The notes: generated from the letters alone by a model not told the origin. Numbered from the stretch's first letter, positions 34,627 through 52,928 are shown. The stretch is 64,000 bases of DNA from an uncultured Candidatus Saccharibacteria bacterium (GCA_964487045.1 CAZAOT010000003.1:72983-136982), one strand, 5' to 3'. A program made the numbers and translations.

Positions 34627-35628
34627 ATGCCTCAGCTTAGACAAAATATCATTACTGGTGAATGGGTCGTTTTTGCTCCAGAGCGAGCTAAAAGACCGAC
34701 TGACTATGTTTCTATAAACAAGGAGAGGAAGCAGAAGAAAGAAGATTGCCCGTTTTGTATTGATTCAAAAAATAGTGAATACTCAAAGCAAAAAAAAGAG
34801 TTTGAGACAGATAATACCTATGTAATCACTAATAAATATCCTGTGTTTATTGAACAGCCTGAAGAGAAATCGGCTAAACTTTTCAGACTCGAGGATGAAT
34901 TCTACAAAATGAAAATTGCTCTTGGCGGTCATGATGTTGTGGTAGTTAAGAACCATGACGTTGATCTATGTGATTTTTCCAAGGATACTTTCGCCGATTT
35001 GCTTAGCACCTTTAAACACAGGGCTGAATATTTTAAGAAAAATGAGAACATTGAGTATGTAATGCCGATCTACAACCATGGCCCGGCTGCTGCTGCTTCA
35101 ATAGAGCATCCACACGCTCAAATTGTCGCTTCAGCAGTTGTACCGAACCAAGTTTTAAGGGAAATCCAGTATACTCAAAAGCATTTTGACGAACATAGCA
35201 AATGCGCATTTTGCGAGCTAGTCGCACACGAAATTGAGCAAAATACCCGGGTAGTGGTAGAAAATGAAGATTTCATCGCTTTTAACTTCTATGCTGCACG
35301 ATTCCCATTTGAGACTTGGATTTTACCGAAAAATCATCAGTGTAAATATGAAGACATAACTAAAGAGCAAATATCTTCTCTCGCCTCCTTATGCAAGGAT
35401 TTATTTGGCAAGATGGGTGTGGTACTAAATGATCCAGATCTTAACTTCTTTATTCACTCCGGTCCTCTTAAAGAAGAGAGTTTGAAATCATATCATTGGC
35501 ATATTGAGATTACTCCTCGACTTTCGACTTATGGTGGGTATGAGCTTGGCTCGGGAATGGTTATCGACATCATAACTCCAGAGCAATCAGCCGAGTTTTT
35601 ACGTCAGGGTAAGATAGAGAAAAACTGA
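34627..35628 (+). CDS. GalT-type (HIT superfamily) hexose-1-phosphate nucleotidyltransferase
   Basis: CPFC zinc motif and the active-site sequence HPHAQIVA. Confidence 0.78.
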   Translation: MPQLRQNIITGEWVVFAPERAKRPTDYVSINKERKQKKEDCPFCIDSKNSEYSKQKKEFETDNTYVITNKYPVFIEQPEEKSAKLFRLEDEFYKMKIALGGHDVVVVKNHDVDLCDFSKDTFADLLSTFKHRAEYFKKNENIEYVMPIYNHGPAAAASIEHPHAQIVASAVVPNQVLREIQYTQKHFDEHSKCAFCELVAHEIEQNTRVVVENEDFIAFNFYAARFPFETWILPKNHQCKYEDITKEQISSLASLCKDLFGKMGVVLNDPDLNFFIHSGPLKEESLKSYHWHIEITPRLSTYGGYELGSGMVIDIITPEQSAEFLRQGKIEKN

Positions 35629-35640
35629 ACTATTAAAACC

Positions 35641-35669
35641 TTGAATTTTTATTCTAGTTAGGGTATATT
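35641..35669 (+). promoter_or_regulatory. promoter TTGAAT-17-TATATT for glycosylation cluster
   Basis: TTGAAT at 35641-35646 and TATATT at 35664-35669. Confidence 0.55.
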
Positions 35670-35730
35670 AACAATCAATCAGGTTAAAGTATCAATTAAG
35701 AGACCTTCAGGTTGATTGTTGGGGTGTAAA

Positions 35731-36993
35731 ATGAAAGTGATGATTCTTCTTAAATTTCCTCTATATGGAGGCGGAAGCGGAACGTACACTAGGAAGCTCG
35801 CTGAGCTTCTGGCTAAAGAGAAGGGGTATCAAGTTGCGGTTGTTTCTCCTGATACTAGAACTATAAAAGGTTGCAAGCACTATCAGATTAAACCTGCTTT
35901 CAAAGCGGTATTCGAGGCTCACCCCGAGATGAAGCGAGCCAAAAAATATTCTCGGCTTTCTGGCAGTGAATTTTCGAGACAATATTCGGCCTACTTACGT
36001 GACATTACTAATGCGGTTGCTGATTTTAAACCAGATGTTATTCATGTTAATCACGCTTCATTTTTAACATGGATAGCTTCATTTATTCGCTCAATGTTTG
36101 GAATAGCGTTTGTAACCACTATACATGGGACTGGTGTGTATAATGCAACTATCGATCAAAGATATAGGCTCTTAACAAAACAAGCTCTTGAGAGATCTGA
36201 AAGCTTGATTGCTGTTTCTCCTCATACCAAAAAATGGTTCTTAAAAGTTTTTGGTAAGAGCTTGATCAAAAAAACAAGAATAGTTCCAAATAGTATTGTT
36301 TTGGATGAGTATATTAAGAAACCATCAGTCGTTAAAATTGAGAAAGAATATAATCTAAAGGGTAAAAAAGTGGTTCTCTTTGCGGGAAGGTTGACCTGGG
36401 AAAAAGGTGTCGAATACTTAATTCGAGCAGCAAAGACAATTAAAGGAAATGTTTATATAGTTGGTGGTGGACCCCATGAGAAAGCCCTGAAGAATCTAGT
36501 AAAGCTAACTGGTGTTAAGAACGTTCATTTTCTTGGGTATATCGGCAAAGACAAGTCAGATGTTTTAAAAGCTCTCTTCTATCGTGCCAATGTTTTAGTA
36601 TTACCTTCAGTGGTAGATGAATCTACTGGTTTGGTTTTGCTTGAGGCAATGGCTTGTAAAACACCCGTAGTTGCATCGGACAAAGGTGGAATTCCTATAG
36701 TTATCAAAAATGGACATAATGGTTTTTTGGTCAGAGCTAGAAGCTCAAAGGCAATATCTCAAGCCGTGAATAATATCCTAACCGATGACATACTGGAGCA
36801 GCGGTTAGGTGAAAATGCTCGCATCACTATCGAAAACAAATTTAGATGGAAGGTTATCTTGCCTCAATTTACTGCGATATACGAAAAAGCTGCTGATGTT
36901 ACACACAAACTACAGAATCAGAAATATAGAGCACTATTCGATAAAGAAGATATTATAAGAGAAAAGGAAGAATTGCAGAAGAAAATTGTTTAG
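35731..36993 (+). CDS. GT4-family glycosyltransferase
   Basis: GGSGTY N-terminus and the C-terminal motif ESTGLVLLEAMACKTPVVASDKGG (E-x7-E type). Confidence 0.85.
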   Translation: MKVMILLKFPLYGGGSGTYTRKLAELLAKEKGYQVAVVSPDTRTIKGCKHYQIKPAFKAVFEAHPEMKRAKKYSRLSGSEFSRQYSAYLRDITNAVADFKPDVIHVNHASFLTWIASFIRSMFGIAFVTTIHGTGVYNATIDQRYRLLTKQALERSESLIAVSPHTKKWFLKVFGKSLIKKTRIVPNSIVLDEYIKKPSVVKIEKEYNLKGKKVVLFAGRLTWEKGVEYLIRAAKTIKGNVYIVGGGPHEKALKNLVKLTGVKNVHFLGYIGKDKSDVLKALFYRANVLVLPSVVDESTGLVLLEAMACKTPVVASDKGGIPIVIKNGHNGFLVRARSSKAISQAVNNILTDDILEQRLGENARITIENKFRWKVILPQFTAIYEKAADVTHKLQNQKYRALFDKEDIIREKEELQKKIV

Positions 36994-37009
36994 GATATAG
37001 TTTTGATTG

Positions 37010-37681
37010 ATGAATAAATCACTCAAGCTTAATGGTATCGAAGATATTAATCTACTGGCGGTTTTGGGGCATTCGAATAAGTCGGCAAAAATTGACGATC
37101 CGATGACTTTTGATGCGAGAGTAAGGTGCCGCGCGGCTGGAGTTTTGTATAAAGAAAAGAAGGTTAAGCAAATTGCACTCCTTGGCGGGGGTAACGATAA
37201 GGTTATGAAAGTGGCCGAAGGAGAAAGAATGCGCAATTATCTTAAGGATTCTTTCGACATTCCCGATGATTTGATGACAACCGAAAGTGAAGGCGTTAAC
37301 ACCATTACGGATATTGTTTCAATCCTTTTGAATATAAAAAAAGAGAAGATCGATCCAGAAAAAGTTGTATTTGTAACCTCTGACTACAATTCAGTTAGGG
37401 TCAAAATGGTGCTCGAAATATTAGGCGCTGCTAAGATGGCCGTATTTTCCTCTGAGAGAATATTGCTCGAGTCAGGAGATTATTATTCTCATCAAGCCGG
37501 GGAATATATGGAAAGTAAAGAATATCAAAAACGTCTTTTATATGAATCATACTGGATTGCCAAGACTGTCTTTGATGCAAAATACACCGAACAGGCCAGG
37601 GAAATTCTTGAAATTAAAAAAAATCCGTTAGAACTATACAAAGATTTGCCACGACGAGAGATGGATAACATTGATACTTAG
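37010..37681 (+). CDS. DUF218 (YdcF/ElyC-like) domain protein
   Basis: The pattern RVRCRAAGVLYKEKKVKQIALLGGG is typical of DUF218. A TTG at 37007 is also possible. Confidence 0.5.
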   Translation: MNKSLKLNGIEDINLLAVLGHSNKSAKIDDPMTFDARVRCRAAGVLYKEKKVKQIALLGGGNDKVMKVAEGERMRNYLKDSFDIPDDLMTTESEGVNTITDIVSILLNIKKEKIDPEKVVFVTSDYNSVRVKMVLEILGAAKMAVFSSERILLESGDYYSHQAGEYMESKEYQKRLLYESYWIAKTVFDAKYTEQAREILEIKKNPLELYKDLPRREMDNIDT

Positions 37682-37689
37682 GAGGAATC

Positions 37690-39642
37690 TTGAACAAAGA
37701 ATATGAGGGTATTTCTCCTGAAATTGAAGAAGATGAAAGACGGGAGAGCCAAGCAGATGCACTCATTGTGTTTGGATTTGGAATTAAAGATCCAAACTGG
37801 ATGCAGAAACGCAAAGAAGCTGAAGAAGCCGGTGTTGATCCTGAAACAATTTCAGATCAGTCGGAGGGTTGGATGCTTTCTCTGGGCGCAAAAATGCGAG
37901 TGCAAGCAGCGGCAGAATTATATTTAAAGGGTGCGACTCGAGAAGTTATTTTTACAGGTGGAGCTACTAGAACTAAAGATGGTTTGCAGCAAACGGAAGC
38001 CCAGGTTATGGAAGATTATTTTCTGCATATCCTTCGAAAGCGAAAATTTGAACAATTAAAGGGCGATAGAGTGCAGCTTTCCGAAACGGAAAGACGTGAT
38101 ATTGATGTTGTCTCTACTGCTTATATTCAGGAAGCTAAAACCCATATTATTAAAGAGGATAAAGCCAGCAATACAATCGAAAATTTTTCCAGAACACTTG
38201 CGATGTTTGATAATAATCCTAATAAATATAAAAAAATCGCACTTCTTTCCAGTAAATTTCATATTGACCGGATTGGACAGCTTTCAGAACAATTTTTATT
38301 ACCTGCTGATGAAGAGTATGGTGCCGAAGAGGTAATGGCAGAATCGAGAAAAGGAAAGAGGCATGAAGCTTTATATACTGATGTGTTAAATGATTATCTC
38401 GAATCCGAGGAATATTATAATTTTACTCTGCGAGAGAACCAATGGAGGGGAGGTTTGAGGAAGGTACCTGAATATTTTCTTCCTCAAACTATTTTTGTAG
38501 ATATAGATCGATTTCGAGAAATACTTAGAAGCATGGCATTGCAGGATGAAGTATATGCAAATAAACTTTCTGAGCTTGGTATAAATCCGGATTCTCTAGA
38601 TGATCTTAGCGAAGAGCAGTTAAATGATATCAAGAATAAGATAGAGTCTATTGAAAGAATCCTACCTCCGCAGAGTTGGGCCGAAGTTAATCCCGAGCAA
38701 ATATTTGCTACACCGCCAGCTAGGTTTGAAAAGAGATCCGAGTATACTGATCCTCTTGAAAGAGCAAGGCATTTAGAAACATTGATTTTTAGTGATGTAG
38801 ATGGCACTTTGCGCGGCGAGGGAGCAAATGATCGCCTGGTAGGTGAATACATTAGGCTCGCCGAACGTTGTTCGGGTGAAATAATTTTAACTTCTAGTCG
38901 CTCGAGAGGAGATCTGGAGACGCTTAAGGATCTATACAGGATGAATGAACTTGCCCCGGTTATTTTTGAAAATGGCGCCGGTGTAGCTTTCGATAATAGG
39001 CTAGTTGATATTGGCATGCTAAAACAAATTGCATCTGAAGAGGGTTTTTCTCATGTTAATTTTGTATCAAGCGCAAATACGACAATAGTGGAATTTTCAC
39101 CGAGTCGGCAGAGTTTGAGGCCTGTTTTTGACGAAGTCGCTAAGGAGACGGGGTTGAAATATCATTATGTATTGGATTTACCTGCTCAGGATATAGCTGA
39201 GCTATATAATATCAGTCTCGAGCAAGCTGAGGATATTAAACAGCAAGTTCCTCGCGAGGAAAAATTATTCATGGAAAATATCGTTTTCGAGGAGTCTGCT
39301 TCGGAAGATGAGATCCAGGAATTTGCGCTAAAAGCAAAAGATAGAGGTCTTCACCTAACCAGGGCAAGGATAACTTGGCATTTGATGAGTTCTAATGTCA
39401 ATAAAGGCGAGGCAGTTAGATTTGTACAAAAGGTTTATAAGCATTTGAGTCAAAATTATCGCTTATCGGTAGCGGTTGGAGATGCTCCTAATGATTTTGA
39501 AATGTTTAAACAATGTGATGAGGCGTATTATGTCGGTGATGATAAGTACGTGGTAGAGGGGAGCCATGAGACAGAAAAGAAGAGGTCTGAAGGTGTAATA
39601 GAGTTAATTAGAAATAAATTTCTTAATATGAGGGAACAATGA
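37690..39642 (+). CDS. DUF218 domain fused to HAD-IIB sugar-phosphate phosphatase-like domain
   Basis: N-terminal part ALIVFGFG...RVQAAAELYLKG...IFTGG. C-terminal part FSDVDGTL...TSSR...VGDAPNDFEMF. TTG start lies 4 nt after GGAGG. Confidence 0.62.
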   Translation: MNKEYEGISPEIEEDERRESQADALIVFGFGIKDPNWMQKRKEAEEAGVDPETISDQSEGWMLSLGAKMRVQAAAELYLKGATREVIFTGGATRTKDGLQQTEAQVMEDYFLHILRKRKFEQLKGDRVQLSETERRDIDVVSTAYIQEAKTHIIKEDKASNTIENFSRTLAMFDNNPNKYKKIALLSSKFHIDRIGQLSEQFLLPADEEYGAEEVMAESRKGKRHEALYTDVLNDYLESEEYYNFTLRENQWRGGLRKVPEYFLPQTIFVDIDRFREILRSMALQDEVYANKLSELGINPDSLDDLSEEQLNDIKNKIESIERILPPQSWAEVNPEQIFATPPARFEKRSEYTDPLERARHLETLIFSDVDGTLRGEGANDRLVGEYIRLAERCSGEIILTSSRSRGDLETLKDLYRMNELAPVIFENGAGVAFDNRLVDIGMLKQIASEEGFSHVNFVSSANTTIVEFSPSRQSLRPVFDEVAKETGLKYHYVLDLPAQDIAELYNISLEQAEDIKQQVPREEKLFMENIVFEESASEDEIQEFALKAKDRGLHLTRARITWHLMSSNVNKGEAVRFVQKVYKHLSQNYRLSVAVGDAPNDFEMFKQCDEAYYVGDDKYVVEGSHETEKKRSEGVIELIRNKFLNMREQ

Positions 39643-40727
39643 AGATATTGATGGTAGCACCACTTCGTCGACCAATTGACCCAGATATAACTGCCTCGAG
39701 GCCGAGAGTTATATTGGATTTAATTGAGGGTCTGATAAAAGAGGGTCATGAGGTTTCAGTTCTTGGAACAGGCGACTCCGAAATTCCAAATGCTAAGTTG
39801 ATTCCATTAATTGATAAAGCGATTAATTTTATGCCCGCTTTTGAAAATCCTTTTTATGCAGAAACAGGCTTTTTGGTCAGATGTGCAAAAAAACTTGAGG
39901 AATTATCTGGTGAGTTCGATATTATCCACAATCATCAATTTCCGGAATTTATTAATTTATTAATTGAAGACAAATTAAAATGTCCAATGATAACAACGGT
40001 ACATGCTCAGATGACTCCGGAGATGGATGAAGCACTTGCCTGTTTTCCGGATTCTAATCTTGTAGCAATATCCGAATCTGCAAGTAGCTTGGCTAAAAAA
40101 GCGAAAATGTTAAAAGTCGTTTATAACGGAGTTGACACCAATCTTTATTCTTTTACTGAAGATAAAGAGGACTATCTACTTTGGATTGGAAGGCTTGCAA
40201 AATCAAAGGATGACAATGGTGAGTTTATTGATCCAAAAGGTGTTAAGTGGGCAATAAAATTGGCTGAGGCGACAGGTAGTCGACTAAAATTAGGCGGAAA
40301 TGTAGAAGATCAAGATTTCTATGATCAGGAAGTTAAGCCTCATCTGAACGATAAAATTGAATGGATCGGACCGATTTCCGCAGAGCAACCGCTATCAAAA
40401 GCTGAAGTAGCAGGCCTGATGCAAAAAGCTAAAGCATTTCTAATGACGATAAATTGGGAAGAGCCATTTGGATTAGTTATGGCAGAGTCGATGAGTTGTG
40501 GAACTCCTATTATTGCATTTAGGCGCGGGTCAGTACCTGAGATTATTGAAGATAGGAAAACGGGATTTATTGTGGAGCCTGAAAAAGGAGTTGATGGTCT
40601 AGTCGAAGCTTATGAAAAGATCAAGCAAATAAATCCAACTGATTGCAGAGATCTAGTGCTTAATAAATTCTCAATTCAAAAAATGGTTGAAAATTACGAG
40701 AAGGCATATATTGAACTTGTAAAATAA
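39639..40727 (+). CDS. GT4-family glycosyltransferase
   Basis: EEPFGLVMAESMSCGTPIIAFRRGSVPEII. Confidence 0.85.
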   Translation: MKILMVAPLRRPIDPDITASRPRVILDLIEGLIKEGHEVSVLGTGDSEIPNAKLIPLIDKAINFMPAFENPFYAETGFLVRCAKKLEELSGEFDIIHNHQFPEFINLLIEDKLKCPMITTVHAQMTPEMDEALACFPDSNLVAISESASSLAKKAKMLKVVYNGVDTNLYSFTEDKEDYLLWIGRLAKSKDDNGEFIDPKGVKWAIKLAEATGSRLKLGGNVEDQDFYDQEVKPHLNDKIEWIGPISAEQPLSKAEVAGLMQKAKAFLMTINWEEPFGLVMAESMSCGTPIIAFRRGSVPEIIEDRKTGFIVEPEKGVDGLVEAYEKIKQINPTDCRDLVLNKFSIQKMVENYEKAYIELVK

Positions 40728-40736
40728 AGAAAAAAT

Positions 40737-41807
40737 ATGAAAAAACCAAAAATAGTTTATTATACGACACCGTATGGATACGGGCATGTTGTAAGAGCGA
40801 ACGCAATTATACAGGCGATTGGAGGTCGTGCTGACGTACATTTGATAGCGGCGATTGATATTATTTTTGATCTAGCTAAAAATATTCATTTTCATAAAAT
40901 TGATGAAATTCCTGGCTCGGTAAGGTTTGATTGTCCAATATATTATGAAGATAAAGAGGGGAAAACTCCAAGTACAAGTTCGGGAAAGCATATTGAAGAA
41001 TTTCGAACTCATACGCGAAAATTCGTTGATCTTCTTTGTGATATTAATCCCGATCTAGTCATTATTGATGTAACTCCGGAATTTGCGATTTTTGCGAAGA
41101 TATTGGGTTTTGAAAGCGCCCAGGTTTTAATCACCGGCAAAAGAGATGATTTACGAAATAAAGTGTCTTTGTGCAGCGTTGATCATGTGATAGTTCCATA
41201 CCCGGAAAATTTTGTTGATTTGTCTTACTTACCTGCTGAAGCTCGAAAAAATATATTTTATAGTGGCGCTTTCTCTAGGTTTGATGGCAAGCGAATTATT
41301 TCAAAAGATGATGCAAAAAAGAAACTTGGAATTCCAAGTGATAAGAAATTAGTTGTTTGTGCTTTTGGCCGAGGCGATTTAGGGGGCAAGGTAGTCAAAA
41401 AGGTTGAAGAAATCGCAAAATCTAAAGAATTTGCCGACTGCCAGTTTAAAATATTCGGCAATATTCCGAACGTTGATGAATATCTTAATGCAGCTGATTT
41501 TGCGATTTCAGGTGCTGGAGATAATACAGTGATGGAAAATTGTTATTATCGGGTTCCGATGATAATGATTCCGCTTAAAAGGCGTTATGATGAGCAGGTT
41601 CTCAAAGCTGAAGCGCTAGAGAAAATAGGAGCGGGAAAAATTATTTTAGAGGATGAAATAGATAGCAAGTTACAAGATGAATTACGTCGACTGATATCAG
41701 ACGAGGGGTATCGTGAAGAAGCTGCCAAAGCTGAAGGAAAGTTTGTTGACGGCCATGGAGCTGAGAGACTTGCTGATGAAATAATACGGTGGACTAAGCT
41801 TAGCTAA
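40737..41807 (+). CDS. GT28/MurG-like (GT-B) glycosyltransferase
   Basis: The C-terminal sequence ADFAISGAGDNTVMENCYYRVPMIMIPL resembles the Glyco_tran_28_C motif. Confidence 0.55.
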   Translation: MKKPKIVYYTTPYGYGHVVRANAIIQAIGGRADVHLIAAIDIIFDLAKNIHFHKIDEIPGSVRFDCPIYYEDKEGKTPSTSSGKHIEEFRTHTRKFVDLLCDINPDLVIIDVTPEFAIFAKILGFESAQVLITGKRDDLRNKVSLCSVDHVIVPYPENFVDLSYLPAEARKNIFYSGAFSRFDGKRIISKDDAKKKLGIPSDKKLVVCAFGRGDLGGKVVKKVEEIAKSKEFADCQFKIFGNIPNVDEYLNAADFAISGAGDNTVMENCYYRVPMIMIPLKRRYDEQVLKAEALEKIGAGKIILEDEIDSKLQDELRRLISDEGYREEAAKAEGKFVDGHGAERLADEIIRWTKLS

Positions 41808-41810
41808 TAG

Positions 41811-41839
41811 TTGACTCTTGATTCAATTTGATGTATAGT
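41811..41839 (+). promoter_or_regulatory. internal promoter TTGACT-17-TATAGT before manC-like gene, followed by SD-sequestering hairpin
   Basis: TTGACT at 41811-41816 and TATAGT at 41834-41839. CCTCGGTTAAA pairs with TTTAACC..GAGG. Confidence 0.55.
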
Positions 41840-41901: not shown

Positions 41902-42996
41902 ATGAATTATGCCGTTATAATGGCTGGTGGATCTGGTACAAGACTTTGGCCCATGAGCCGAAAACAGAAGCCTAAACAGCTTCATAATTTAGTTTCTGAT
42001 AAAACCCTTATTCAAGAAACATATAATAGATTGCTTAAGGCGTTACCCGAGGAAAATATCTATGTTTCTACGACTAGTTCATATGTAGATGAGATTAGAA
42101 AGCAGCTTCCTAAAATTCCGCGAGAAAATTTTATTATTGAGCCTTCTTCTCGCAATACTGGACCAGCGCTCGCCTATTTGGCAAAAGTTATTGCGATGAA
42201 GGACCCGGAGGCTATTATTGCCACTATTGCTTCTGATCATATAGTTAAAAATATTGATGTTTTCGCCAATACTGTCAAAACGGCTTTTGAAGCAGCTAAA
42301 AAATTTCCTGATCATTTGATTGCGGTTGGGATTAATCCTACTAAACCAGATACCGGACTGGGTTATATCAAAATGGGCTCGATGAAGGTAGAGATTAACG
42401 ATGAGAAGGTTTTTGAAGTCGATACGTTTGTAGAAAAACCAGATCACAAAACAGCGGAAAAGTATTTACAGAGCTGGGAATATTTATGGAATGGTGCTTA
42501 TTATTTCTTCTCGGCCAAATCGATGCTCGGATGGATAAAGAAGTATCGTCCAGAGATGCTCAAGACAATCGAAGAGATCGGCGAGCTTATAGCGCAGGGT
42601 GCTAATGGTACTACGCAAACTAAGATTAAGTCCCTTTATGAGTCACTCGAAAATGAACAATTCGAGAACGCAATTATCGAGCAGGAAGATTTCACTAAAG
42701 TCTTAGTTATTCCTGCAGATCTTGGCTGGTCCGATATTGGCAACTGGGGAACTCTTCACGATGTATTAACTGAAACATATGGAAGTGAGATGATTTCGAG
42801 GGGTTATCATATAGATGTTGATTCGAAAGGTTGCTTGATTTATGGTGGTGAAAAAATGGTTGCTACCCTTGGACTAGAGAATATTATTGTTATTGATACT
42901 CCTGATGTAATGCTGATTGCAGACAAGAGAAGGGCTCAGGACGTTAAAAAGTTACTAGAAAAACTTAAAGACGAAGGTAAGCACTTATATTTGTAA
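41902..42996 (+). CDS. manC: mannose-1-phosphate guanylyltransferase-like sugar nucleotidyltransferase
   Basis: MAGGSGTRLWPMSR nucleotide-binding motif and ManC-like length, without the isomerase domain. Confidence 0.85.
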   Translation: MNYAVIMAGGSGTRLWPMSRKQKPKQLHNLVSDKTLIQETYNRLLKALPEENIYVSTTSSYVDEIRKQLPKIPRENFIIEPSSRNTGPALAYLAKVIAMKDPEAIIATIASDHIVKNIDVFANTVKTAFEAAKKFPDHLIAVGINPTKPDTGLGYIKMGSMKVEINDEKVFEVDTFVEKPDHKTAEKYLQSWEYLWNGAYYFFSAKSMLGWIKKYRPEMLKTIEEIGELIAQGANGTTQTKIKSLYESLENEQFENAIIEQEDFTKVLVIPADLGWSDIGNWGTLHDVLTETYGSEMISRGYHIDVDSKGCLIYGGEKMVATLGLENIIVIDTPDVMLIADKRRAQDVKKLLEKLKDEGKHLYL

Positions 42997-42997
42997 G

Positions 42998-45756: not shown

Positions 45757-45758
45757 CT

Positions 45759-46394
45759 GTGGGTAAGACGAAAGTATTTATAGATCTTGACGATACGTTG
45801 ATTGACACCGCTCAGATCAAGCATGATATTTTTGGCAAAATCGCTCTTATGGGTGTGCCTATGGCAGAAATAGCGTCAAGCTACAGCGAAGCGCGCAAAC
45901 AATTCGGCGCTGACTATCTTAAGCCTTTTGCTGAGTCATTTCAGGAATTTGGGATTGATGGCGAGATTTTGTACAATGGTCTGCAGCAAATGATTCTGCA
46001 ACATATGGATAAATATTTACTAGAAGATCGTCTTGTGTGGCTAGATCGGTTTCAGAGTGATCAATATGAAATGTACTTGCTCACTCACGGTAACCCTGAT
46101 ATTCAGGAGAGAAAGGTTCAGGGCCTTCATTTAGAAAATCTCTTTGAAGATAGAGTGATTTATGTGCAAGACAATAAGGCCGACTACATAAAGAAACTTC
46201 TAGGGCCTGGTGAGAAATTTATTTTGGTTGATGATAAAAAGGAAGTACTGGATGAAATTATCAATGAATACCCAGAACAAGCCGAAGTTTGGGAAGCAAC
46301 CAAAAGCGTAGACGATCAAGGCGAAATTACATACAATGATCCAGAAGGGTATTATAGTCCGCTTGATATTGCCCGAGAAGGAAAAAATTATTAA
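45759..46394 (+). CDS. HAD-superfamily hydrolase
   Basis: FIDLDDTLIDT motif I. GTG start. Confidence 0.75.
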   Translation: MGKTKVFIDLDDTLIDTAQIKHDIFGKIALMGVPMAEIASSYSEARKQFGADYLKPFAESFQEFGIDGEILYNGLQQMILQHMDKYLLEDRLVWLDRFQSDQYEMYLLTHGNPDIQERKVQGLHLENLFEDRVIYVQDNKADYIKKLLGPGEKFILVDDKKEVLDEIINEYPEQAEVWEATKSVDDQGEITYNDPEGYYSPLDIAREGKNY

Positions 46395-46406
46395 TAAGGA
46401 GTCTTT

Positions 46407-47330
46407 ATGGCAAAAATTTTAGTTACCGGTGGAGCTGGCTTTATTGGTTCGAACTTTTCCAATCTAATGAGTCAAAAAGGGCATGAAGTTGTTGCTTTTG
46501 ATAACCTTTCTCTTGGAAAAAAGGACAATCTTTCCGAAAAAGTAAAATTTGTTGAAGGTGACGTTAATAAAGAAGAAGATCTGCTTAGTGCTGGAGAAGA
46601 TTTTGATTATATTATTCATTTAGCTGCTTCCTCCTCTGCTCCAATGTTCGCCGAAAATATGTACTGGGCTTATCAGAATAATGTTTCGGGTCATGTCAGG
46701 GTCATGCAATATGCGAAAAAAATTGGTGTTAAGAAAATGTTGTTTGCCTCTACTTCTTCAATTTACGGCAACAATCCGACACCACTTACCGAAGACCAAG
46801 AAGTGATTCCTCCGAACCATTATTCGGTGACAAAGTTTGCTCAAGAAGGTGCTTCCCGTGTTTTTTCTAAAGCGGAGGGCTTAGAGATAATTGCTTTCAG
46901 ATTTATGTCGATTTACGGGTTAAACGAAGGTCACAAAACATATTTCGCTAATCTAGTTTCGCAATTTATTTGGTCAATGGCTAAAGACGAAGAGCCGGTT
47001 CTGTATGGTGATGGTACGCAGGAGAGGGATTTTACTAACGTAAAAGACGTTTGCCAGGGTATTGAAAAGGCGATGGAAACAGAAAAAAAATACGGATTTA
47101 CAATCTTCAATATCGGTACGCACAAGGCGATTAATCTATTGGAATTAGTTGAAATGATCAATAAGGCGCTTGGCAAAAATATTAAGCCGAAACTTATCCC
47201 GAATCCAGTTAAGGAAGGTTATGTGAAAAGCCAACTTGCCAGTATTGATAAGATATCAAGTGAACTTGGGTATGAACCGACGGTAGAACTCGAGGACGGA
47301 ATTAAAGAAATTGTTGATAACCTAAAGTAA
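46407..47330 (+). CDS. NAD-dependent sugar epimerase/dehydratase (SDR)
   Basis: VTGGAGFIGSN and YSVTK catalytic motif. Confidence 0.9.
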   Translation: MAKILVTGGAGFIGSNFSNLMSQKGHEVVAFDNLSLGKKDNLSEKVKFVEGDVNKEEDLLSAGEDFDYIIHLAASSSAPMFAENMYWAYQNNVSGHVRVMQYAKKIGVKKMLFASTSSIYGNNPTPLTEDQEVIPPNHYSVTKFAQEGASRVFSKAEGLEIIAFRFMSIYGLNEGHKTYFANLVSQFIWSMAKDEEPVLYGDGTQERDFTNVKDVCQGIEKAMETEKKYGFTIFNIGTHKAINLLELVEMINKALGKNIKPKLIPNPVKEGYVKSQLASIDKISSELGYEPTVELEDGIKEIVDNLK

Positions 47331-47387
47331 ACTTGTTTCGCACTAATAATTAGGTTAGAATTTAACTGAACAATAACAGGAGGGTTT

Positions 47388-48710
47388 TTGCGTAAAGGCA
47401 AAACAAGAGTTCTCTTTCTAGCTTTGGTTGGGGTTGTTGTTTTAGTAAGTCTTTTTGCAATTTTTAGGAAGCAGATCTTTGCTGACACCATCACGATGCC
47501 AAGCTGGATTGATAGCGCCACGGTAACTAAATATAATACCTGGACTGCAGGCCAGAAACTTTCTTTTGACAGATGTGCGTCGAATGGTGTTAATACTAAA
47601 TCCACCCTTACTCCTCAGGAGATCAATCAGTTCGGTTCGAGTTCGGTAGCTTTTAATATTAGACCAATCGTAAATGTATCTTCGAGTAGTCCTTACTGGC
47701 CATGGTATCAGAGTAGCTATAGGTTAATTGTCACACCTCTAAAATACGATCTTCAAGCCGATGGATCACGAACTCTGAAAATGAGGCTAACGCTTGGTAA
47801 TCCTGGCACTAGTCCTGTGATTGTTGCTAATCCAGAAGCTCGCTATTATTTCTGGTCTTTTAGCAACTCAGTTCCAAAAGTTGGCAATGTAATATTTACA
47901 AGGGGAGTTGATTATACCTATACATTGTTGCCTGGCGAATATGTGAGTCAAGATACGCTTGAACTCAGCGGAGTAAAGGATCCGGCTTACTGGGGAATCG
48001 AGTTCTCGAATATGAAATATACCTTATCTGGAACGACGCCAAATTTTGAGCAGCCAATTTGGGATCCAGTGGCGCAAAAAACTGATGCTACGCTTAGTTG
48101 TATAATCAATCCTCTTCCCTTAGCAGGGTTGGTTCCAGGCTCAATTCCGTCAGTAACTCCTTCGACAGAAGTTCCTGGTAGTAGAGCGGTTACCTTTAGA
48201 AGAGGATTTTCGACTTTTGGTAATAGTGGAATGACGAACGGCACAATGTTTAAAGACGCTGGATTATTTCTCTATGCTTTTGATGGACCAACTAATTCTT
48301 GGAAAATTTATCCTGGGGGACCGGAGATAAATACTGATTTAAAAAAAGGCTATTACGTTTATAATCCTAGTGCTGAGAAAACTATTAGGTTCGGTTTCGG
48401 TAATCCTACAGTGACTACTTTTGAGCTCACCAAGGGTTGGAATATGCTTTGGACTGCGATGGACAAAAGATTAAGCGATTTAAATTTATTTTATAACGGT
48501 CAGACTTTGTCCGCTCAAGATATGATTAATCTAAGGACGATTAGCAATAACATATTTATCATTCAGGATGATACTGCCACTACGGCTTGTACCTACTTTA
48601 AACTTCTGTCTAATACCGATACTCAAGCGACATGCTCTGGTGGATCTGCAGGACTCGGAAGTTCTAGCAAGATTCCAGGTGGTAAAGCATTCTGGATTTA
48701 TGTCAATTAA
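47388..48710 (+). CDS. signal-anchored secreted protein, unknown family, paralog A
   Basis: TTG lies 3 nt after GGAGGG. It shares the N-terminal PSWIDSATVTKYN block and a C-terminal module (LTKGWNMLW...CTYFKLL...KAFWIYV) of about 120 aa with the next gene. Confidence 0.7.
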   Translation: MRKGKTRVLFLALVGVVVLVSLFAIFRKQIFADTITMPSWIDSATVTKYNTWTAGQKLSFDRCASNGVNTKSTLTPQEINQFGSSSVAFNIRPIVNVSSSSPYWPWYQSSYRLIVTPLKYDLQADGSRTLKMRLTLGNPGTSPVIVANPEARYYFWSFSNSVPKVGNVIFTRGVDYTYTLLPGEYVSQDTLELSGVKDPAYWGIEFSNMKYTLSGTTPNFEQPIWDPVAQKTDATLSCIINPLPLAGLVPGSIPSVTPSTEVPGSRAVTFRRGFSTFGNSGMTNGTMFKDAGLFLYAFDGPTNSWKIYPGGPEINTDLKKGYYVYNPSAEKTIRFGFGNPTVTTFELTKGWNMLWTAMDKRLSDLNLFYNGQTLSAQDMINLRTISNNIFIIQDDTATTACTYFKLLSNTDTQATCSGGSAGLGSSSKIPGGKAFWIYVN

Positions 48711-48786
48711 TTTTTTTAAATTGTTTTTGATTGTTAAAAAAGTAAAATTGTAATAGTAGTTTGATTACTTATCATTAGGAGGATGT

Positions 48787-50217
48787 GTGAAGACAAAAAA
48801 TAACCAAAAGCTTAAATTAATAGTATTTTTGGTGCTAGTTATTGGTCTTGCAGCACTTGCAGGTTTCTATATATATAAAAGGACGGTATCTGCTGATACT
48901 ACTCTTCCTTCTTGGATAGATTCGGCTACAGCTACTAAATATAATAGCGTTTGGTCGACTGCTCAGAAACAGCAGTTTCTTGGTTGTATGTCGAATGGTT
49001 ATACTACCAAAAGCACTTTGACTGCCGCCGAACAGTCGCAGTTTGGTGCAAATTCGGTAGTATTTGAGGGTCAGGCAGCTCCTCCAAATGACCCTGCTTA
49101 TCAGATACCATTCTATCAAAGTAAATATCGAATAGTTGTAACTCCCCAAATGTATACAACTAATAATGGATCTACGAGTGCTAAATTTAAATTTAATGTT
49201 TCTAATCCTACTTCAAGCACCTACCCAATGAGAAAGACTTCGATCAGGTTAAGCTTTTGGCATGTCGAGCAATTCGACTATTATGTCGATGGAGTCACTC
49301 CGCATTATTGGGCTGCCGATCAGGTATTATATTTCCCGAATCAGGACAATCAATCATCGCTTGCGCCTGGCCAACAGATGACAATTGAATCAAACGTCTT
49401 AAATATGACTAATGAAAGTTTTTATACCGTTAGCTTTGCTACAGAGATGTATGGTGTTAATACCTCAACCGGGGCAATTACATGGACCGGAGGGGGAACG
49501 GCAAGCTCGGTAAATTGTATAGTAAACCCAATTCCTATTGCATCGCTTAGGACTATGGCTTTTGCCTCTGTCACGCCGACTCAAACTACAACAAGCACCG
49601 CCACTTCCACGGTGACAGCAAGTGCAACTAGGACGGTTGCGCCTCCAACTGTAACGCCAACTCCTTCGGTCACATCAACTACCGCGGGACCGGGAGACTC
49701 TACTTATAATTTTCCTCGTGGTTTTAGTGTATTTGGAGCTACAGCTAATTTCCCATCAAGTCGGTTTGCTGATAATGGGTTATATGTCTACAAGTTTGAT
49801 GGTGTCTCGAACAGCTGGGTATATTGGCCGGGTATGACTCAATTTAATTTAGAAACAGGCAAGGGTTATTATGCCTATGCTGCTTCAGCGAAGTCCGCAA
49901 GCCTTCCTCTAGCCGCTGTTCCTACGGGTACGTATTCGCTGACAAAGGGTTGGAATATGCTTTATAACATTGGGGATAAATCGCTTAGTTCATTGCAGCT
50001 TAGCTATAACGGGGTAACCAAGTCAGCCCAGGAGATGATAAATAGTGGCACGATCCATTCAAGAGTTTTTATTATTGATAACGATCAAGCTACTCAGGCT
50101 TGCAGCTACTTTAAGCTACTTGGGTCAACTAACTCTGTTGCTAATTGTAGCTCAAACACTTTAGCGGTAACGGCTACTTTAAATTCCGCCAAGGCCTTCT
50201 GGGTTTACGTATTCTGA
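48787..50217 (+). CDS. signal-anchored secreted protein, unknown family, paralog B with Thr/Ser/Pro linker
   Basis: GTG lies 4 nt after GGAGG. The linker is TPTQTTTSTATSTVTASATRTVAPPTVTPTPSVTSTT. Confidence 0.7.
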   Translation: MKTKNNQKLKLIVFLVLVIGLAALAGFYIYKRTVSADTTLPSWIDSATATKYNSVWSTAQKQQFLGCMSNGYTTKSTLTAAEQSQFGANSVVFEGQAAPPNDPAYQIPFYQSKYRIVVTPQMYTTNNGSTSAKFKFNVSNPTSSTYPMRKTSIRLSFWHVEQFDYYVDGVTPHYWAADQVLYFPNQDNQSSLAPGQQMTIESNVLNMTNESFYTVSFATEMYGVNTSTGAITWTGGGTASSVNCIVNPIPIASLRTMAFASVTPTQTTTSTATSTVTASATRTVAPPTVTPTPSVTSTTAGPGDSTYNFPRGFSVFGATANFPSSRFADNGLYVYKFDGVSNSWVYWPGMTQFNLETGKGYYAYAASAKSASLPLAAVPTGTYSLTKGWNMLYNIGDKSLSSLQLSYNGVTKSAQEMINSGTIHSRVFIIDNDQATQACSYFKLLGSTNSVANCSSNTLAVTATLNSAKAFWVYVF

Positions 50218-50259
50218 TCTATAGGTTGATAATTGTCAGTTTTGAGCTAAAATCTTTTC

Positions 50260-52026
50260 GTGGCTAAGAAAAAGAAGAAAACTACAAGGCAGCGCTCACC
50301 CTTATTGACACCAAGGGTTCGGCTATTGGTTATCTATGCGGTAATTGGTGTAATTTTTTTATCTTTAGCTGTCTGGCTAACCTGGCCTCTTAGTAAGTTC
50401 ATTAATTCTGCTATCATCTCCCAACCCGACTTTACTGACGGACCGTTTTTTATTTGGAATCTGTGGTGGGTGAAAAAAGCGATTTTGAATCTATCAAATC
50501 CATTCTTTAGTGATTTTGTATATTTTCCCTCGCGATCTAATCTTGCTCTTCATACCCTTACATTTACTTCAGGGATAATCTATTTGCCACTTAGTCTTTT
50601 TTTCAGGCCTCTTACTTCGTTGAATATAATTCAGCTCTTGTCTTTTATAGCGAGTGGGCTAGGGATTGTTTTATTTTCGAGTTATCTAACTAAACCAAAA
50701 TCAATATTGGAATATTTAAGCCTAGTGCCAGGGGCCATTATTTTCGCTTTCTCCCCTTTCGTTTTTTCTCACCTTCTGGCGGGACACTATAACTTAAGTA
50801 TGATTTGGCCGATTCCATTTGTCGCATATTTCTTGATAAGGACACTAGATGAGAAAAAATATACGCCGGCAATAGGCTTAGGGATATTTGCTTCAGCTCT
50901 CGCCTATCTTGACTTGCAACTGATATTCTTTGCTGGCATTGTATGTCTGCCGATTTTTTTCTCACACATGATTTTTAAGTGGAGAGAATTTTTTACCAAG
51001 CAATCGGTGCTCAGTTTGGCTCTAGCTGTTTTAGTTTTTGCAATTATTTTTGCTCTTCCATATGGATATCTGATGAGCGAATTCTGGGGGACGAAAGATG
51101 CATTTTCTACATATAATAATGGCGATATAAAGATTTTATTTGGTTTTAATCCACTAAATCCACTATTTAAATATCAAAATTACAAACTTCTTCTTTCATT
51201 GATTGGATCATATCGCGAAAACACAATTTCAATCGGTTTTACTGGTCTATTTGTAACTTTAGGAGGGTTTGCGTTGTTTGCGCGGCAACATTGGAAACAG
51301 AAATTTATTTATTTTTTCGTTCTTATCGTTGGAATAGCTTTATCGCTTGGCCCCAACCTTCAATATAACAATCATGTTTATGAGCATATTAGATTGCCCT
51401 ATTATTATCTTCAAAATCTACCATTCTTTAATCTAGGTTTAGTGCCGAGCCGATTTATTTTAATCGCTTATTTTGCTCTAGCTGTGCTTGTGAGTTTGAG
51501 CATGTTCTCTGTCGTAAGATTTTTTCAAAACAAAAAATTGTTTATTCCGGCCATCTGCTTACTTGTGATTGTTCCAATGTTTATTTTAGTCGAAAATTAT
51601 TCTGGCAAAATGATGATTGATCCACTTTATGATATCAAGCAGGTTCAAGAAATTGCACGAGAGGAAGGCGATTTTACTATCTTGCCTTATGAAGCCGGTC
51701 AAAGAGACGCGTATATTCAGGTTCTGCATCAAAAGAAAGTAGTGACGGGATTCTTGGGTAGGAGGATACATGATTATTATATGTCCAAGTATGGTAGCGT
51801 TTATCCAATAAACAAATTTTCTAGAGGACTCGCAGATGAGCTTAATCAATCTGACACTAAGCAATCAGTTGTTTCGGTATTCAGCGAATACAAGATAAGG
51901 TATATAGTTATTGAGAAAAATTTTAAGGATGATCAAGAGCTTGCGAAATTGAGGAGCTATTTAAAAAATATTCAGGCAGATTTGACTTATGAATCTAGCC
52001 AAGTGATGATTTACAAGGTTAATTAA
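50260..52026 (+). CDS. GT-C-fold-like polytopic membrane protein (PMT/ArnT/YfhO-type glycosyltransferase candidate)
   Basis: At least 10 hydrophobic helices followed by a soluble C-terminal domain of about 130 aa. Placement is by architecture only. Confidence 0.5.
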   Translation: MAKKKKKTTRQRSPLLTPRVRLLVIYAVIGVIFLSLAVWLTWPLSKFINSAIISQPDFTDGPFFIWNLWWVKKAILNLSNPFFSDFVYFPSRSNLALHTLTFTSGIIYLPLSLFFRPLTSLNIIQLLSFIASGLGIVLFSSYLTKPKSILEYLSLVPGAIIFAFSPFVFSHLLAGHYNLSMIWPIPFVAYFLIRTLDEKKYTPAIGLGIFASALAYLDLQLIFFAGIVCLPIFFSHMIFKWREFFTKQSVLSLALAVLVFAIIFALPYGYLMSEFWGTKDAFSTYNNGDIKILFGFNPLNPLFKYQNYKLLLSLIGSYRENTISIGFTGLFVTLGGFALFARQHWKQKFIYFFVLIVGIALSLGPNLQYNNHVYEHIRLPYYYLQNLPFFNLGLVPSRFILIAYFALAVLVSLSMFSVVRFFQNKKLFIPAICLLVIVPMFILVENYSGKMMIDPLYDIKQVQEIAREEGDFTILPYEAGQRDAYIQVLHQKKVVTGFLGRRIHDYYMSKYGSVYPINKFSRGLADELNQSDTKQSVVSVFSEYKIRYIVIEKNFKDDQELAKLRSYLKNIQADLTYESSQVMIYKVN

Positions 52027-52064
52027 AATTTGTAAATTGTAAATTAAGAGAATATATTGAATCA

Positions 52065-52928
52065 ATGAGCCATAAGTATTTGATTGGAGCTAGTTTAGGA
52101 TACTCTGGAATTGAAGCGATCACTTCCGATCAAAATTTTAATATACTGGAAAAGAAGTCCAATCCTTTCCCGGGCAAGTTAGGCAAGGATACAATAGTCG
52201 CAAAATTATCTAAAACCATTACTTCGCTTGCTGAATATCACAACTCTTTTGCGGTAGGGATAAGTTTGCCTGCGGTTTTCGATCAAAGTAATAAAAAAAT
52301 CATTTCTTCTCAAATCGAAGGACTTGAAGGTGTGGATATTTATAGTCTGCTCTCGCGAAAAATTGATAAGCCAATTTTTTTCTTCCGAAGAAACTTCTCG
52401 ATTATGCTTTCTGAGCAAGCTTTTGGCGCGGCTAAAGATCTTAAAAACGCAGTATTGGTTGAAATTGGTAGAGATATCTCATGCGCGCTTCTCATCGGCG
52501 GGAAGATCTACAAAGGATCAAATAACGCCGCTGGACTAATTGACGAAACAATAGTCGATATTACTAGGGAAAAGAGGAATGAAGGAGGGACATTCTCAAG
52601 TTTAATTTCCGGTGAGGGTATTGAATCATTAACCGGAAAATCTGTGTATGAAATTCTAAAAGATTCCAAGGACTCAAACTTAGTTAGCAAACAGATAATC
52701 AGAGACCTCAAAGAAACATTACTTACTGGTTTTATTAATGCTAAGCTTTTGCTGGACCCCGAAGCTTTTATAGTAAGTGGGGAAATATTACAAAATTACG
52801 CTTTATTTGAAGCCGCTTTTAAAGACCTTGGAGTAGAGGTAAAAAAAGGAGAAATTGGCTCATCGGCCCCGGCACTTGGTGGGGCAATTGCCCTGTATAA
52901 TAAAGTAAATAAGAAGGACGTTAAATGA
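52065..52928 (+). CDS. ROK-family/sugar-kinase-like protein
   Basis: ASKHA-fold-like pattern and size. The glycine motifs are degenerate. Confidence 0.5.
   Translation: MSHKYLIGASLGYSGIEAITSDQNFNILEKKSNPFPGKLGKDTIVAKLSKTITSLAEYHNSFAVGISLPAVFDQSNKKIISSQIEGLEGVDIYSLLSRKIDKPIFFFRRNFSIMLSEQAFGAAKDLKNAVLVEIGRDISCALLIGGKIYKGSNNAAGLIDETIVDITREKRNEGGTFSSLISGEGIESLTGKSVYEILKDSKDSNLVSKQIIRDLKETLLTGFINAKLLLDPEAFIVSGEILQNYALFEAAFKDLGVEVKKGEIGSSAPALGGAIALYNKVNKKDVK

Follow-up and report, generated by a model that had tools for sequence, protein, structure and literature searches.

Gene content of the block between ruvC and ruvA

We analyzed a 64,000-nucleotide stretch from an uncultured Candidatus Saccharibacteria bacterium (GCA_964487045.1, CAZAOT010000003.1:72983-136982), termed the window, in which a block of genes at positions 34627–52928 separates ruvC from ruvA and includes a 588-residue membrane protein predicted to be a glycosyltransferase of the GT-C fold. 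The locus probably yields an extracytoplasmic glycoconjugate through this enzyme. We tentatively read the block as a surface-glycosylation locus of a clade of Patescibacteria (candidate phyla radiation, CPR), embedded in the ruvC–ruvA operon and possibly acting on protein.

The block comprises 15 open reading frames (ORFs), all on the plus strand and every one of at least 200 amino acids (aa; 211–650 aa), with a coding fraction of 97.6% and intergenic distances of −4 to 94 bp. The first-pass annotation of this DNA had described co-directional genes with minimal gaps, as we find, and had counted 16 of them, a number that is impossible because the gaps are too small to accommodate a further gene. 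Families were assigned with Pfam and NCBIfam profiles at curated cut-offs, motif checks and solved relatives in the Protein Data Bank (PDB). The profiles bear out the earlier family calls, both for the sugar-nucleotide supply (GalT-type transferase, ManC-like enzyme, long phosphomannomutase/phosphoglucomutase (PMM/PGM)-like enzyme, SDR epimerase and two HAD phosphatases) and for the cytoplasmic GT-B transferases (two GT4 and one GT28-like). The genes are as follows:

34627–35628, plus strand: GalT-type (class I HIT) hexose-1-phosphate nucleotidyltransferase, 333 aa (TIGR00209; Pfam GalP_UDP_transf N- and C-terminal domains)
35716–36993, plus strand: GT4 glycosyltransferase, GT4a, 425 aa (Pfam Glycos_transf_1 and Glyco_transf_4)
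37007–37681, plus strand: soluble DUF218 protein, 224 aa (Pfam DUF218; 78% identical to the L008 copy)
37690–39642, plus strand: fusion of DUF218 and an HAD-IIB phosphatase, 650 aa (Pfam DUF218 and Hydrolase_3)
39639–40727, plus strand: GT4 glycosyltransferase, GT4b, 362 aa (Pfam GT4)
40737–41807, plus strand: GT-B enzyme with a GT28_C/GT1-like C-terminal domain, 356 aa (Glyco_tran_28_C, 60 bits)
41902–42996, plus strand: ManC, mannose-1-phosphate guanylyltransferase without a phosphomannose isomerase (PMI) domain, 364 aa (NTP_transferase and ManC_GMP_beta-helix)
42998–43864, plus strand: soluble protein with an HVHVC (HIT-like) motif, 288 aa (motif search)
43864–45756, plus strand: divergent long phosphohexomutase-like protein, presumed phosphomannomutase, 630 aa (PGM_PMM_II the sole Pfam match)
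45759–46394, plus strand: small HAD hydrolase, 211 aa (Pfam Hydrolase/HAD_2; DLDDT motif)
46407–47330, plus strand: SDR nucleotide-sugar epimerase, GalE-like, 307 aa (Pfam Epimerase)
47388–48710, plus strand: exported paralog A, 440 aa (hydrophobic segment at the N-terminus, then FAD; short Pro/Ser/Thr linker; C-terminal domain with two invariant Cys)
48787–50217, plus strand: exported paralog B, 476 aa (Thr/Ser/Pro linker at about residues 255–302, nt ~49549–49692)
50260–52026, plus strand: predicted GT-C-fold membrane glycosyltransferase of an unclassified family, 588 aa (invariant Asp60 codon at nt 50437–50439)
52065–52928, plus strand: ROK-fold protein, 287 aa (Pfam ROK, 76 bits; overlaps ruvA by 4 bp)

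The 588-residue membrane protein has a predicted GT-C fold

Neither Pfam (E ≤ 0.1) nor NCBIfam matched the 588-residue protein, and a sequence search against PDB chains returned nothing meaningful. An AlphaFold2 model built on an alignment of 32 homologs reached a pLDDT of 91.7 and a pTM of 0.91, and shows a transmembrane bundle followed by a C-terminal outer α/β globular domain. The model superposes on solved GT-C enzymes, placing the protein within this superfamily, with structural match scores of 17.1 for Pmt4, 16.8 for AglB, 15.7 for STT3B, 15.4 for ArnT, 15.2 for AftA and 14.9 for PglB, followed by ALG12, Pmt2 and DPY19. Foldseek ranked STT3, AglB and PglB first (E ~1e-9, best 7e-10; TM-score ~0.5), with DPY19, AftD and ArnT also high. 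As hydropathy gives about ten transmembrane segments and the predicted structure the GT-C fold, the earlier description of a GT-C-like membrane protein with at least ten helices holds. On the basis of the model, the protein is a GT-C glycosyltransferase of a new, unclassified family.

The first transmembrane helix (residues 18–40) is followed by the motif FTDGPFFxWNLWW, and its D60, together with R398, is invariant across the 32 homologs, distant ones included. The N-terminus is rich in Lys and Arg, which therefore puts the D60 loop outside the membrane, and we infer from these sequence features that D60 would be the catalytic acidic residue in the first extracytoplasmic loop. The first-pass annotation had stated that its hypothesis would fall if the protein lacked GT-C catalytic loops. 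The combination of a GT-C fold with an invariant acidic residue in outer loop 1 therefore removes this objection.

Less of the proposed PMT-type identity survives. Enzymes of the PMT family (GT39) carry an Asp-Glu pair in loop 1. Loop 1 of the 588-residue protein reads F-T-D60-G-P, with DE dipeptides occurring only at residues 197 and 526, and we rejected an assignment to GT39 as neither a PMT or PMT_2 profile match nor the loop-1 pair is present. An oligosaccharyltransferase (OST) of the STT3/AglB/PglB type (GT66) was rejected as well, given the lack of a WWDYG motif and of an STT3 profile match; here the likeness is at the level of the fold only.

Searching the PDB with the 32-homolog profile returned AftD alone, at a non-significant E of 1 (11 bits, FAFSP region), and one of the 32 relatives matched PF11847 (GT-C_AftD) at 0.0029. 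The wider superfamily of its homologs comprises 15,453 representative clusters at E ≤ 1e-3 and overlaps DUF6311, DUF2079 and PTPS_related in precomputed annotation. In the literature, we found no paper mentioning DUF6311.

The locus occupies a fixed position across CPR lineages

The block is flanked by the following genes:

33426–34139, plus strand: yebC (Pfam TACO1/YebC)
34142–34618, plus strand: ruvC (Pfam RuvC); the yebC–ruvC flank is the same in L009 and L010
52925–53485, plus strand: ruvA (Pfam)
53340–55463, plus strand: recG (Pfam); the ruvA–recG flank is the same in every related locus

The first block gene lies 8 bp from the ruvC stop, and the last block gene overlaps the ruvA start by 4 bp, so that the block is inserted between ruv genes that normally adjoin one another. 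The plus-strand run is wider than the block (30138–63425), and co-directionality alone therefore sets no block limits. Promoter-like and terminator-like sites were found at chance frequency.

A profile scan of a genome collection with an alignment of 19 GT-C sequences yielded three loci; among named genomes, one Saccharibacteria and one Berkelbacteria metagenome-assembled genome are nearest to the locus. At least eight further CPR loci share the arrangement, always with the ending GT-C, ROK-like, ruvA, recG; they are given here with the identity of their GT-C and the gene order:

L009: GT-C 46%; ruvC, then GalT, GT4, S6PP-type HAD, GT1-family, GT4, ManC, long PGM, epimerase, GT-C, ROK
L010: GT-C 40%; yebC, ruvC, then GalT, GT4, GH130, GT4, mannose-6-phosphate isomerase cupin, ManC, PMM, GT-C, ROK
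L007 (Berkelbacteria): GT-C 40%; GT28-like, GT4, GT4, HIT-like, ManC, HIT-like, PMM, epimerase, GT-C, ROK
L008: GT-C 47%; GT4, DUF218, DUF218, GT4, GT4, ManC, PMM, epimerase, paralog, GT-C, ROK
L003: GT-C 55%; GT2, GT4, ManC, long PGM, kinase, epimerase, two paralogs, GT-C, ROK
P0002 contig: GT-C 59%; epimerase, several exported proteins including a paralog, GT-C, ROK
L013: GT-C 34%; ManC, HIT-like, long PGM, epimerase, unrelated exported protein, GT-C, ROK
L006 (Saccharibacteria): GT-C 38%; epimerase, gap of ~0.9 kb, GT-C, ROK

The conserved core consists of at least two GT4 enzymes, ManC, a phosphomannomutase, the GT-C and the ROK-like protein, usually joined by the epimerase and the GalT-type enzyme; the GalT-type gene likewise comes first after ruvC in L009 (63% identity) and L010 (55%). 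The setting between ruvC and ruvA–recG is common to all relatives examined (the window and the eight related loci), an unusual place in the chromosome that does not change from one CPR class to another. More distant GT-C homologs (Roseiflexus-like L014, Vicinamibacteria L015) stand in different, uninformative genomic contexts.

In L010, a GH130 family gene (4818–5765) and a small mannose-6-phosphate isomerase cupin (7021–7374) replace the phosphatase/DUF218 stretch. GH130 is the mannoside phosphorylase family, and its presence with the cupin suggests that mannosides may be the substrates of the soluble part of the locus.

Exported proteins with Thr/Ser/Pro-rich linkers precede the GT-C gene

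Paralogy of the two secreted proteins described at first pass was confirmed (36% identity, E 3e-74). A single hydrophobic segment lies at the N-terminus of each, and neither has a Pfam or NCBIfam match. The Thr/Ser/Pro linker of about 40 residues attributed to paralog B was located at residues 260–299, where 70% of the residues are Ser, Thr or Pro and the AlphaFold2 model is disordered; the model has a pLDDT of 72 and its folds are uninformative. The family is small, with eight database matches, one of which (P0127) carries a CBM_4_9 match. Its members share a leader ending in a conserved (S/F)-A-D, one or two N-terminal β-sandwich modules, a Pro/Thr/Ser linker that is present in every member at variable length, and, at the C-terminus, a conserved domain of ~170 aa in which two Cys are invariant.

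Wherever the context suffices (the window, L003/L005, L008 and the P0002 contig), the paralog family is found between the epimerase and the GT-C; on short contigs its genes occur in tandem arrays. In L013, the slot upstream of the GT-C holds an exported protein of 736 aa (β-helix/Big_9) with a 68% Ser/Thr/Pro linker and the same leader type, which we rejected as a family member since hhalign similarity is confined to the leader. Exported proteins with Thr/Ser/Pro linkers from two unrelated families thus stand directly upstream of the GT-C in five of nine related loci. As to the co-occurrence of paralogs and GT-C that the first-pass annotation had proposed to check, the paralogs adjoin the GT-C in the four contexts named above, are confined to the closest relatives, and are absent from L007, L009 and L010. 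Dedication of the cluster to the paralogs was rejected on this ground; the exported proteins, we infer, joined an older conserved core in particular lineages and do not belong to the core machinery. It had also been stated that conservation of the cluster in a known teichoic-acid or exopolysaccharide pathway, with the secreted paralogs absent, would refute the hypothesis; the core without paralogs in these three loci comes part of the way in spirit.

The similar Ser/Thr tract noted in a giant surface protein nearby was confirmed:

56110–59367, plus strand: Gly-rich repeat surface protein, 1085 aa, with a C-terminal membrane anchor (Ser/Thr/Pro stalk at residues 967–1006)

The stalk is 72% Ser/Thr/Pro and immediately precedes the anchor. 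The protein is β-helix-like and has no Pfam match; a 70%-identical homolog of 1091 aa occupies the same place after comEA in L013 (15724–18999), and homologs are absent from L008 and L003. It is a possible second acceptor candidate. Among 56 ORFs of the window, just two contain Ser/Thr/Pro tracts of at least 55%, paralog B and this protein, both at most 6 kb from the GT-C.

Sugar-nucleotide supply

The GalT-type enzyme scored 128.4 bits against TIGR00209 (cut-off 102.1) and has the CxxC zinc motif (CPFC at residue 41) and the HPH active site at residue 161. By model and motifs it belongs to the galactose-1-phosphate uridylyltransferase (class I HIT) family, an assignment that does not imply nucleotide or sugar specificity. 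ManC exceeded the cut-offs of both its domains (NTP_transferase 134 bits, ManC β-helix 72 bits); against TIGR01479 it reached 284 bits over positions 3–350 of 467 and, lacking the C-terminal PMI domain, fell short of the cut-off of 373. Copies of ManC are 60–80% identical in all full-length relatives.

The 630-residue phosphohexomutase-like protein retains the Ser-His (183), DPDGDR (338) and ENTSH (434) motifs and carries an N-terminal extension of ~130 aa, with Pfam recognizing domain II only. Its copies in L003 and L009 are 70–74% identical, and L007, L008 and L010 have a canonical PGM/PMM of 444–468 aa in the same position, a replacement which supports a phosphomannomutase role of the long form. 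The GDP-mannose supply is present and conserved, with ManC and the presumed phosphomannomutase as the enzymes that would provide it. The GalT-type and GalE-like enzymes would interconvert UDP-hexoses; the best solved relatives of the epimerase are UDP-hexose 4-epimerases (e.g. 4zrm at 1e-40), and it is 74–84% identical across relatives. The small HAD (45759–46394) is not conserved among relatives, and L003 has a PRK-type kinase in its place.

The 288-residue HVHVC protein had no Pfam, NCBIfam or PDB match, and longer homologs lie downstream of ManC in L007 (465 aa) and L013 (421 aa). This HIT-like family, with the motif H-x-H-x-(C/V/Q), is kept beside ManC (42998–43864 in the window; 6098–7495 and 3551–4891 in L007; 2991–4256 in L013) and may represent a novel nucleotidyl-transferase or hydrolase.

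Cytoplasmic glycosyltransferases, DUF218 proteins and the ROK-fold protein

The best solved relatives of GT4a are the sucrose-phosphate synthase (SPS) of T. elongatus (6kih, 8e-28) and BshA (2e-26), with PimA and PimB also among the matches; all NCBIfam equivalog cut-offs were missed. GT4b matched the T. elongatus glucosylsucrose synthase TeGSS (7fg9/8x3q) over its full length at E 6e-47. In TeGSS, mutagenesis established the importance of Tyr18 and Arg179, and Trp10 stacks on sucrose (PMC9909042); its gene, tll1591, is adjacent to the SPS gene tll1590 (PMC9909042). A HMMER alignment showed that GT4b keeps the donor-site residues R179, K184 and E265, with the acceptor-site W10 replaced by R and Y18 by T. 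As Y18 and W10 are not conserved, we rejected GT4b as a bona fide glucosylsucrose synthase. For the GT28-like enzyme, the MurG and MJ1255 models scored under their cut-offs, and its PDB relatives are small-molecule UDP-glycosyltransferases (UGTs), matched in the C-terminal domain only; a homolog is found in L007.

Both DUF218 proteins were recovered by Pfam, the second one fused to the HAD-IIB domain. The family had been linked to envelope and polyprenyl-phosphate metabolism, yet neither protein has a transmembrane segment. The fusion protein has a DVDGT motif at residue 369 and YedP/MPGP-like 1xvi as its best PDB match (8e-9). MPGP and SPP are its nearest families, both with scores under the cut-offs (87 bits against a cut-off of 165 for TIGR01486, the MPGP family), and in L009 an S6PP-family HAD takes its position directly after a GT4. 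The curated SPS and SPP models likewise stayed below cut-off on the block proteins (sucr_P_syn_N 45 vs 576; SPP subfamily 43.9 vs 107).

Directly downstream of the GT-C, every locus encodes the ROK-fold protein, forming a tightly coupled pair. ROK sugar kinases are characterized by a DxGxT motif, a catalytic Asp (NDAN) and Zn-binding Cys residues. In an alignment of seven orthologs (window, L003, L006, L007, L008, L009, L010; 46–74% identical), inspection by eye showed ASLGxSG in place of DxGxT, RRNF/L in place of NDAN and no Zn-Cys cluster, and all NCBIfam kinase equivalog cut-offs were missed. The earlier designation as a ROK kinase has the profile match (76 bits) behind it, with the canonical kinase motifs not recognizable by eye, and the protein may not be a sugar kinase.

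Enzymes for loading a lipid carrier

Pfam scans of 40 further ORFs of the window detected no GT2, Bac_transf, MraY/WecA-type transferase or flippase, in line with the earlier remark that no polyprenyl-phosphate GT2 synthase is visible, which holds across the 64 kb. The GT2 in L003 has no homolog in the window, is generic by NCBIfam, and resembles MftF, EpsD and AglG rather than Ppm1. At 16996–21734 (minus strand) of L009, 5 kb downstream of the locus, a separate cluster encodes a Bac_transf priming transferase, a WecG-type transferase, an epimerase and several methyltransferases; these organisms therefore have priming enzymes for lipid-linked glycans elsewhere.

Other features of the window

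A GC island of ~550 bp at 32400–32950 (65–68% GC, in a window of ~38% GC) looks like foreign DNA or an assembly oddity. Rfam gave no match above threshold, and no counterpart was found at the related loci. An ORF on its minus strand (32462–32968) would encode a small exported Gly/Cys/Tyr-rich protein, with a ribosome-binding site GAAAGAGGTG, an ATG start, a signal-peptide-like sequence MRTMPIVLVVIAAVSTASA and a G+C-rich hairpin downstream of the stop. At 16450–17739 (plus strand), a 429-aa ORF in locally GC-rich sequence (~0.55) overlaps an antisense 301-aa ORF at 16849–17754 (minus strand); the 429-aa ORF matched neither Pfam nor Rfam.

Discussion

How the locus might work can be outlined from its parts. 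On the cytoplasmic side, the GT-B enzymes would assemble a glycoside that contains mannose or hexose. A carrier-loading transferase and a flippase encoded outside the window would help to produce a sugar or short glycan linked to polyprenyl phosphate, which the GT-C would transfer at the outer face of the membrane. The likeliest acceptors in this genome would be the Thr/Ser/Pro-rich linkers of paralogs A and B, perhaps also the 1085-residue stalked protein. That the acceptor of the GT-C is protein we hold as a tentative view, for which the recurrent adjacency of the linker-bearing exported proteins is the best, circumstantial, evidence, and the presence of the protein-modifying Pmt4, AglB, STT3B, PglB and DPY19 among the best structural matches counts on the same side. 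Of the first-pass hypothesis, in which a lipid-linked glycan is transferred onto the block's own secreted substrates, the GT-C, the GDP-mannose supply and the adjoining linker proteins stand; the PMT identity and the dedication to the paralogs do not.

Several observations weigh against a protein acceptor. The GT-C itself has no Pfam match, with three of its 32 relatives matching PMT_2 weakly (best E 1.4e-4), and WWD occurs nowhere in it, the position after the last transmembrane segment reading V-E-N-Y-S-G. Its sequence link, a marginal one, would be to AftD, a GT-C that acts on glycans. Neither the 64-kb window nor the conserved core contains a GT2 polyprenyl-phosphate sugar synthase, a priming phosphoglycosyltransferase or a flippase. 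The GT-B enzymes are nearest to enzymes with soluble acceptors (SPS, BshA, glucosylsucrose synthase, small-molecule UGTs), and since a PMT-type system requires no cytoplasmic GT-B, the conservation of two or three of them weakens a simple PMT-type model. In L007 (Berkelbacteria), L009 and L010 the GT-C has no exported protein beside it, and in L006 we recognized none; with the core existing in the first three loci without paralogs, the system is not dedicated to them. Moreover, Ser/Thr/Pro linkers are common in exported multidomain proteins, glycosylated or not.

Protein O-mannosylation in actinobacteria combines the GT2 enzyme Ppm1 with a PMT of family GT39 (e.g. M. tuberculosis Rv1002c, Streptomyces Pmt). 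The block resembles it in a GT-C whose first outer loop holds an acidic residue, the GDP-mannose supply by ManC and PMM and the Thr/Ser/Pro-rich exported candidate acceptors. It differs in that the GT-C lacks a PMT/PMT_2 match, has TD60G in place of the Asp-Glu pair and bears a C-terminal globular outer domain, while a Ppm1-like GT2 is missing from the window and three cytoplasmic GT-B enzymes are added.

Nearly as likely as a protein acceptor is a glycan or lipid of the envelope, with the locus and the GT-C chemistry being the same. The GT4 and GT28-like enzymes would then start a mannose-containing glycolipid or lipid-linked glycan from GDP-mannose, and the GT-C would extend or decorate a lipoglycan or wall polysaccharide outside, as in actinobacterial lipomannan/lipoarabinomannan (LAM) or teichoic-acid glycosylation, with the exported paralogs as passengers or glycan-binding proteins. 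The sole sequence-level links of the GT-C, the FAFSP-region match (E = 1) and the one relative with PF11847, both lead to AftD. The core without exported proteins in L007, L009 and L010 points the same way, and so do PimA and PimB among the GT4a matches and the CBM_4_9 match of P0127. Two to three cytoplasmic GT-B enzymes with GDP-mannose also suit a glycolipid or lipoglycan pathway and would be superfluous for a PMT system adding single mannoses. Such an acceptor leaves unexplained, however, why two unrelated exported families with Thr/Pro linkers lie directly upstream of the GT-C in five of nine loci; the cluster contains no lipid-anchor or polymer-export genes, and PMT and OST structures match the GT-C almost as well as AftD does. 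The parallel to the mycobacterial AftD/LAM pathway (GT4 enzymes PimA/PimB and a GT-C) extends to the logic of GT4, GDP-mannose and GT-C, whereas AftD has ~1,400 aa with carbohydrate-binding modules, the window GT-C has 588 aa and a non-significant sequence link, phosphatidylinositol and arabinose genes are missing, and the CPR host does not possess a mycolata envelope.

It is less probable, though a serious alternative and compatible with either acceptor of the GT-C, that the 5′ half of the block (GalT-type, GT4a, DUF218, DUF218-HAD, GT4b, GT28-like) forms a separate cytoplasmic pathway for a soluble glycoside. It would follow the synthase-phosphatase-elongase logic known from sucrose/glucosylsucrose, mannosylfructose and mannosylglycerate and yield an osmolyte or storage sugar, the GT-C being a mere neighbor that shares the nucleotide-sugar supply. 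GT4a and GT4b have as best solved relatives tll1590 (8e-28) and, over the full length, tll1591 (6e-47), the products of adjacent genes (PMC9909042), and a phosphatase of the MPGP/SPP-type HAD-IIB class lies between the two GT4 genes of the block, which likens it to the cyanobacterial SPS/SPP/GSS set. In L009 a GT4 is directly followed by an S6PP-family phosphatase, L010 has the GH130 gene and the mannose-6-phosphate isomerase cupin in the same stretch, and small-molecule UGTs come closest to the GT28-like protein among solved structures. Yet all NCBIfam cut-offs were missed widely (sucr_P_syn_N 45/576, SPP 44/107, MPGP 87/165), BshA is as close to GT4a as SPS, and GT4b, which shares the donor-site R179, K184 and E265 with TeGSS, has lost the acceptor/catalytic residues W10 and Y18 to R and T. 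The phosphatase is missing in L008 and L010. Furthermore, unlike the cyanobacterial set (PMC9909042), the block centers on GDP-mannose and ends in the GT-C, with which it forms one conserved unit with gaps of −4 to 94 bp, even at a GT-C identity of 34%.

We consider it improbable that the GT-C is the transferase of a so far unrecognized, OST-like, en bloc protein glycosylation native to the Patescibacteria clade. In this variant of the protein-acceptor reading, a lipid-linked, mannose-containing oligosaccharide would be built from GDP-mannose by the Alg/Pgl-like GT28 and GT4 enzymes and flipped, and the STT3-shaped GT-C without WWDYG would transfer it to the Thr/Ser/Pro linkers (O-linked) or to other sites on surface proteins. 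The likeness to STT3/AglB/PglB (GT66) lies in the best Foldseek matches and the transmembrane bundle with a C-terminal outer α/β domain, and that to Pgl/Alg pathways in the GT4 and GT28_C-like enzymes and the GDP-mannose supply. Against this, the GT-C is only ~10–12% identical to these enzymes, reads ENYSG instead of WWDYG and has no STT3 Pfam match, and the cluster is without a priming phosphoglycosyltransferase or flippase.

Finally, it is very unlikely that there is no dedicated system, merely syntenic housekeeping sugar-activation genes (Leloir-type GalT/GalE, PMM, ManC) and assorted glycosyltransferases that stay together simply since CPR genomes are gene-dense, with the exported proteins adjacent by chance: the plus-strand run that exceeds the block, the chance-level promoter and terminator scans and the variable middle of the cluster (DUF218, HAD, GH130, PRK-type kinase, GT2) would fit, but the same ordered core, ending every time in GT-C, ROK-like and ruvA, persists at 34–40% GT-C identity across named CPR classes, the GT-C/ROK-like pair is tightly coupled, and Ser/Thr/Pro-linker exported proteins of two families recur in one specific slot.

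Among sequenced proteins, the GT-C has homologs (E 1e-37 to 1e-16) in the DUF6311/DUF2079/PTPS_related GT-Cs of Chloroflexota and Acidobacteriota, which share D60, W69, P90, N122, R398 and Y548 with it and differ in their genomic contexts and by an identity of 22–28%. The component superfamilies and the logic leading from sugar activation through GT-B to GT-C are already known. New are the GT-C family, the fixed ruvC–ruvA position across CPR lineages, its constant companion, a ROK-fold protein without recognizable kinase motifs, and a slot in which surface proteins with Thr/Pro linkers recur; our literature search (CPR/Saccharibacteria GT-C, protein glycosylation, S-layer, DUF6311) found no description of this locus. 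A study of Saccharibacteria pili called the glycosylation of this group unexplored (bioRxiv 10.1101/2024.11.25.624915).

The ultra-small Patescibacteria/CPR, whose cells are attached to those of their hosts, make up much of bacterial diversity, and their surface chemistry is almost unknown. The compact locus described here, found at one fixed address in Berkelbacteria, Saccharibacteria and unclassified CPR lineages, joins mannose activation to a confidently modelled GT-C outside any curated family and names candidate acceptors in some lineages. If the OST-like reading were true, no machinery for protein glycosylation would have been defined earlier in CPR bacteria; if the acceptor were a wall glycan, the enzyme would represent a more ordinary new GT-C family. 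The locus offers an entry point to the envelope glycobiology of CPR bacteria and a handle on an uncharacterized GT-C superfamily of ~15,000 sequence clusters.

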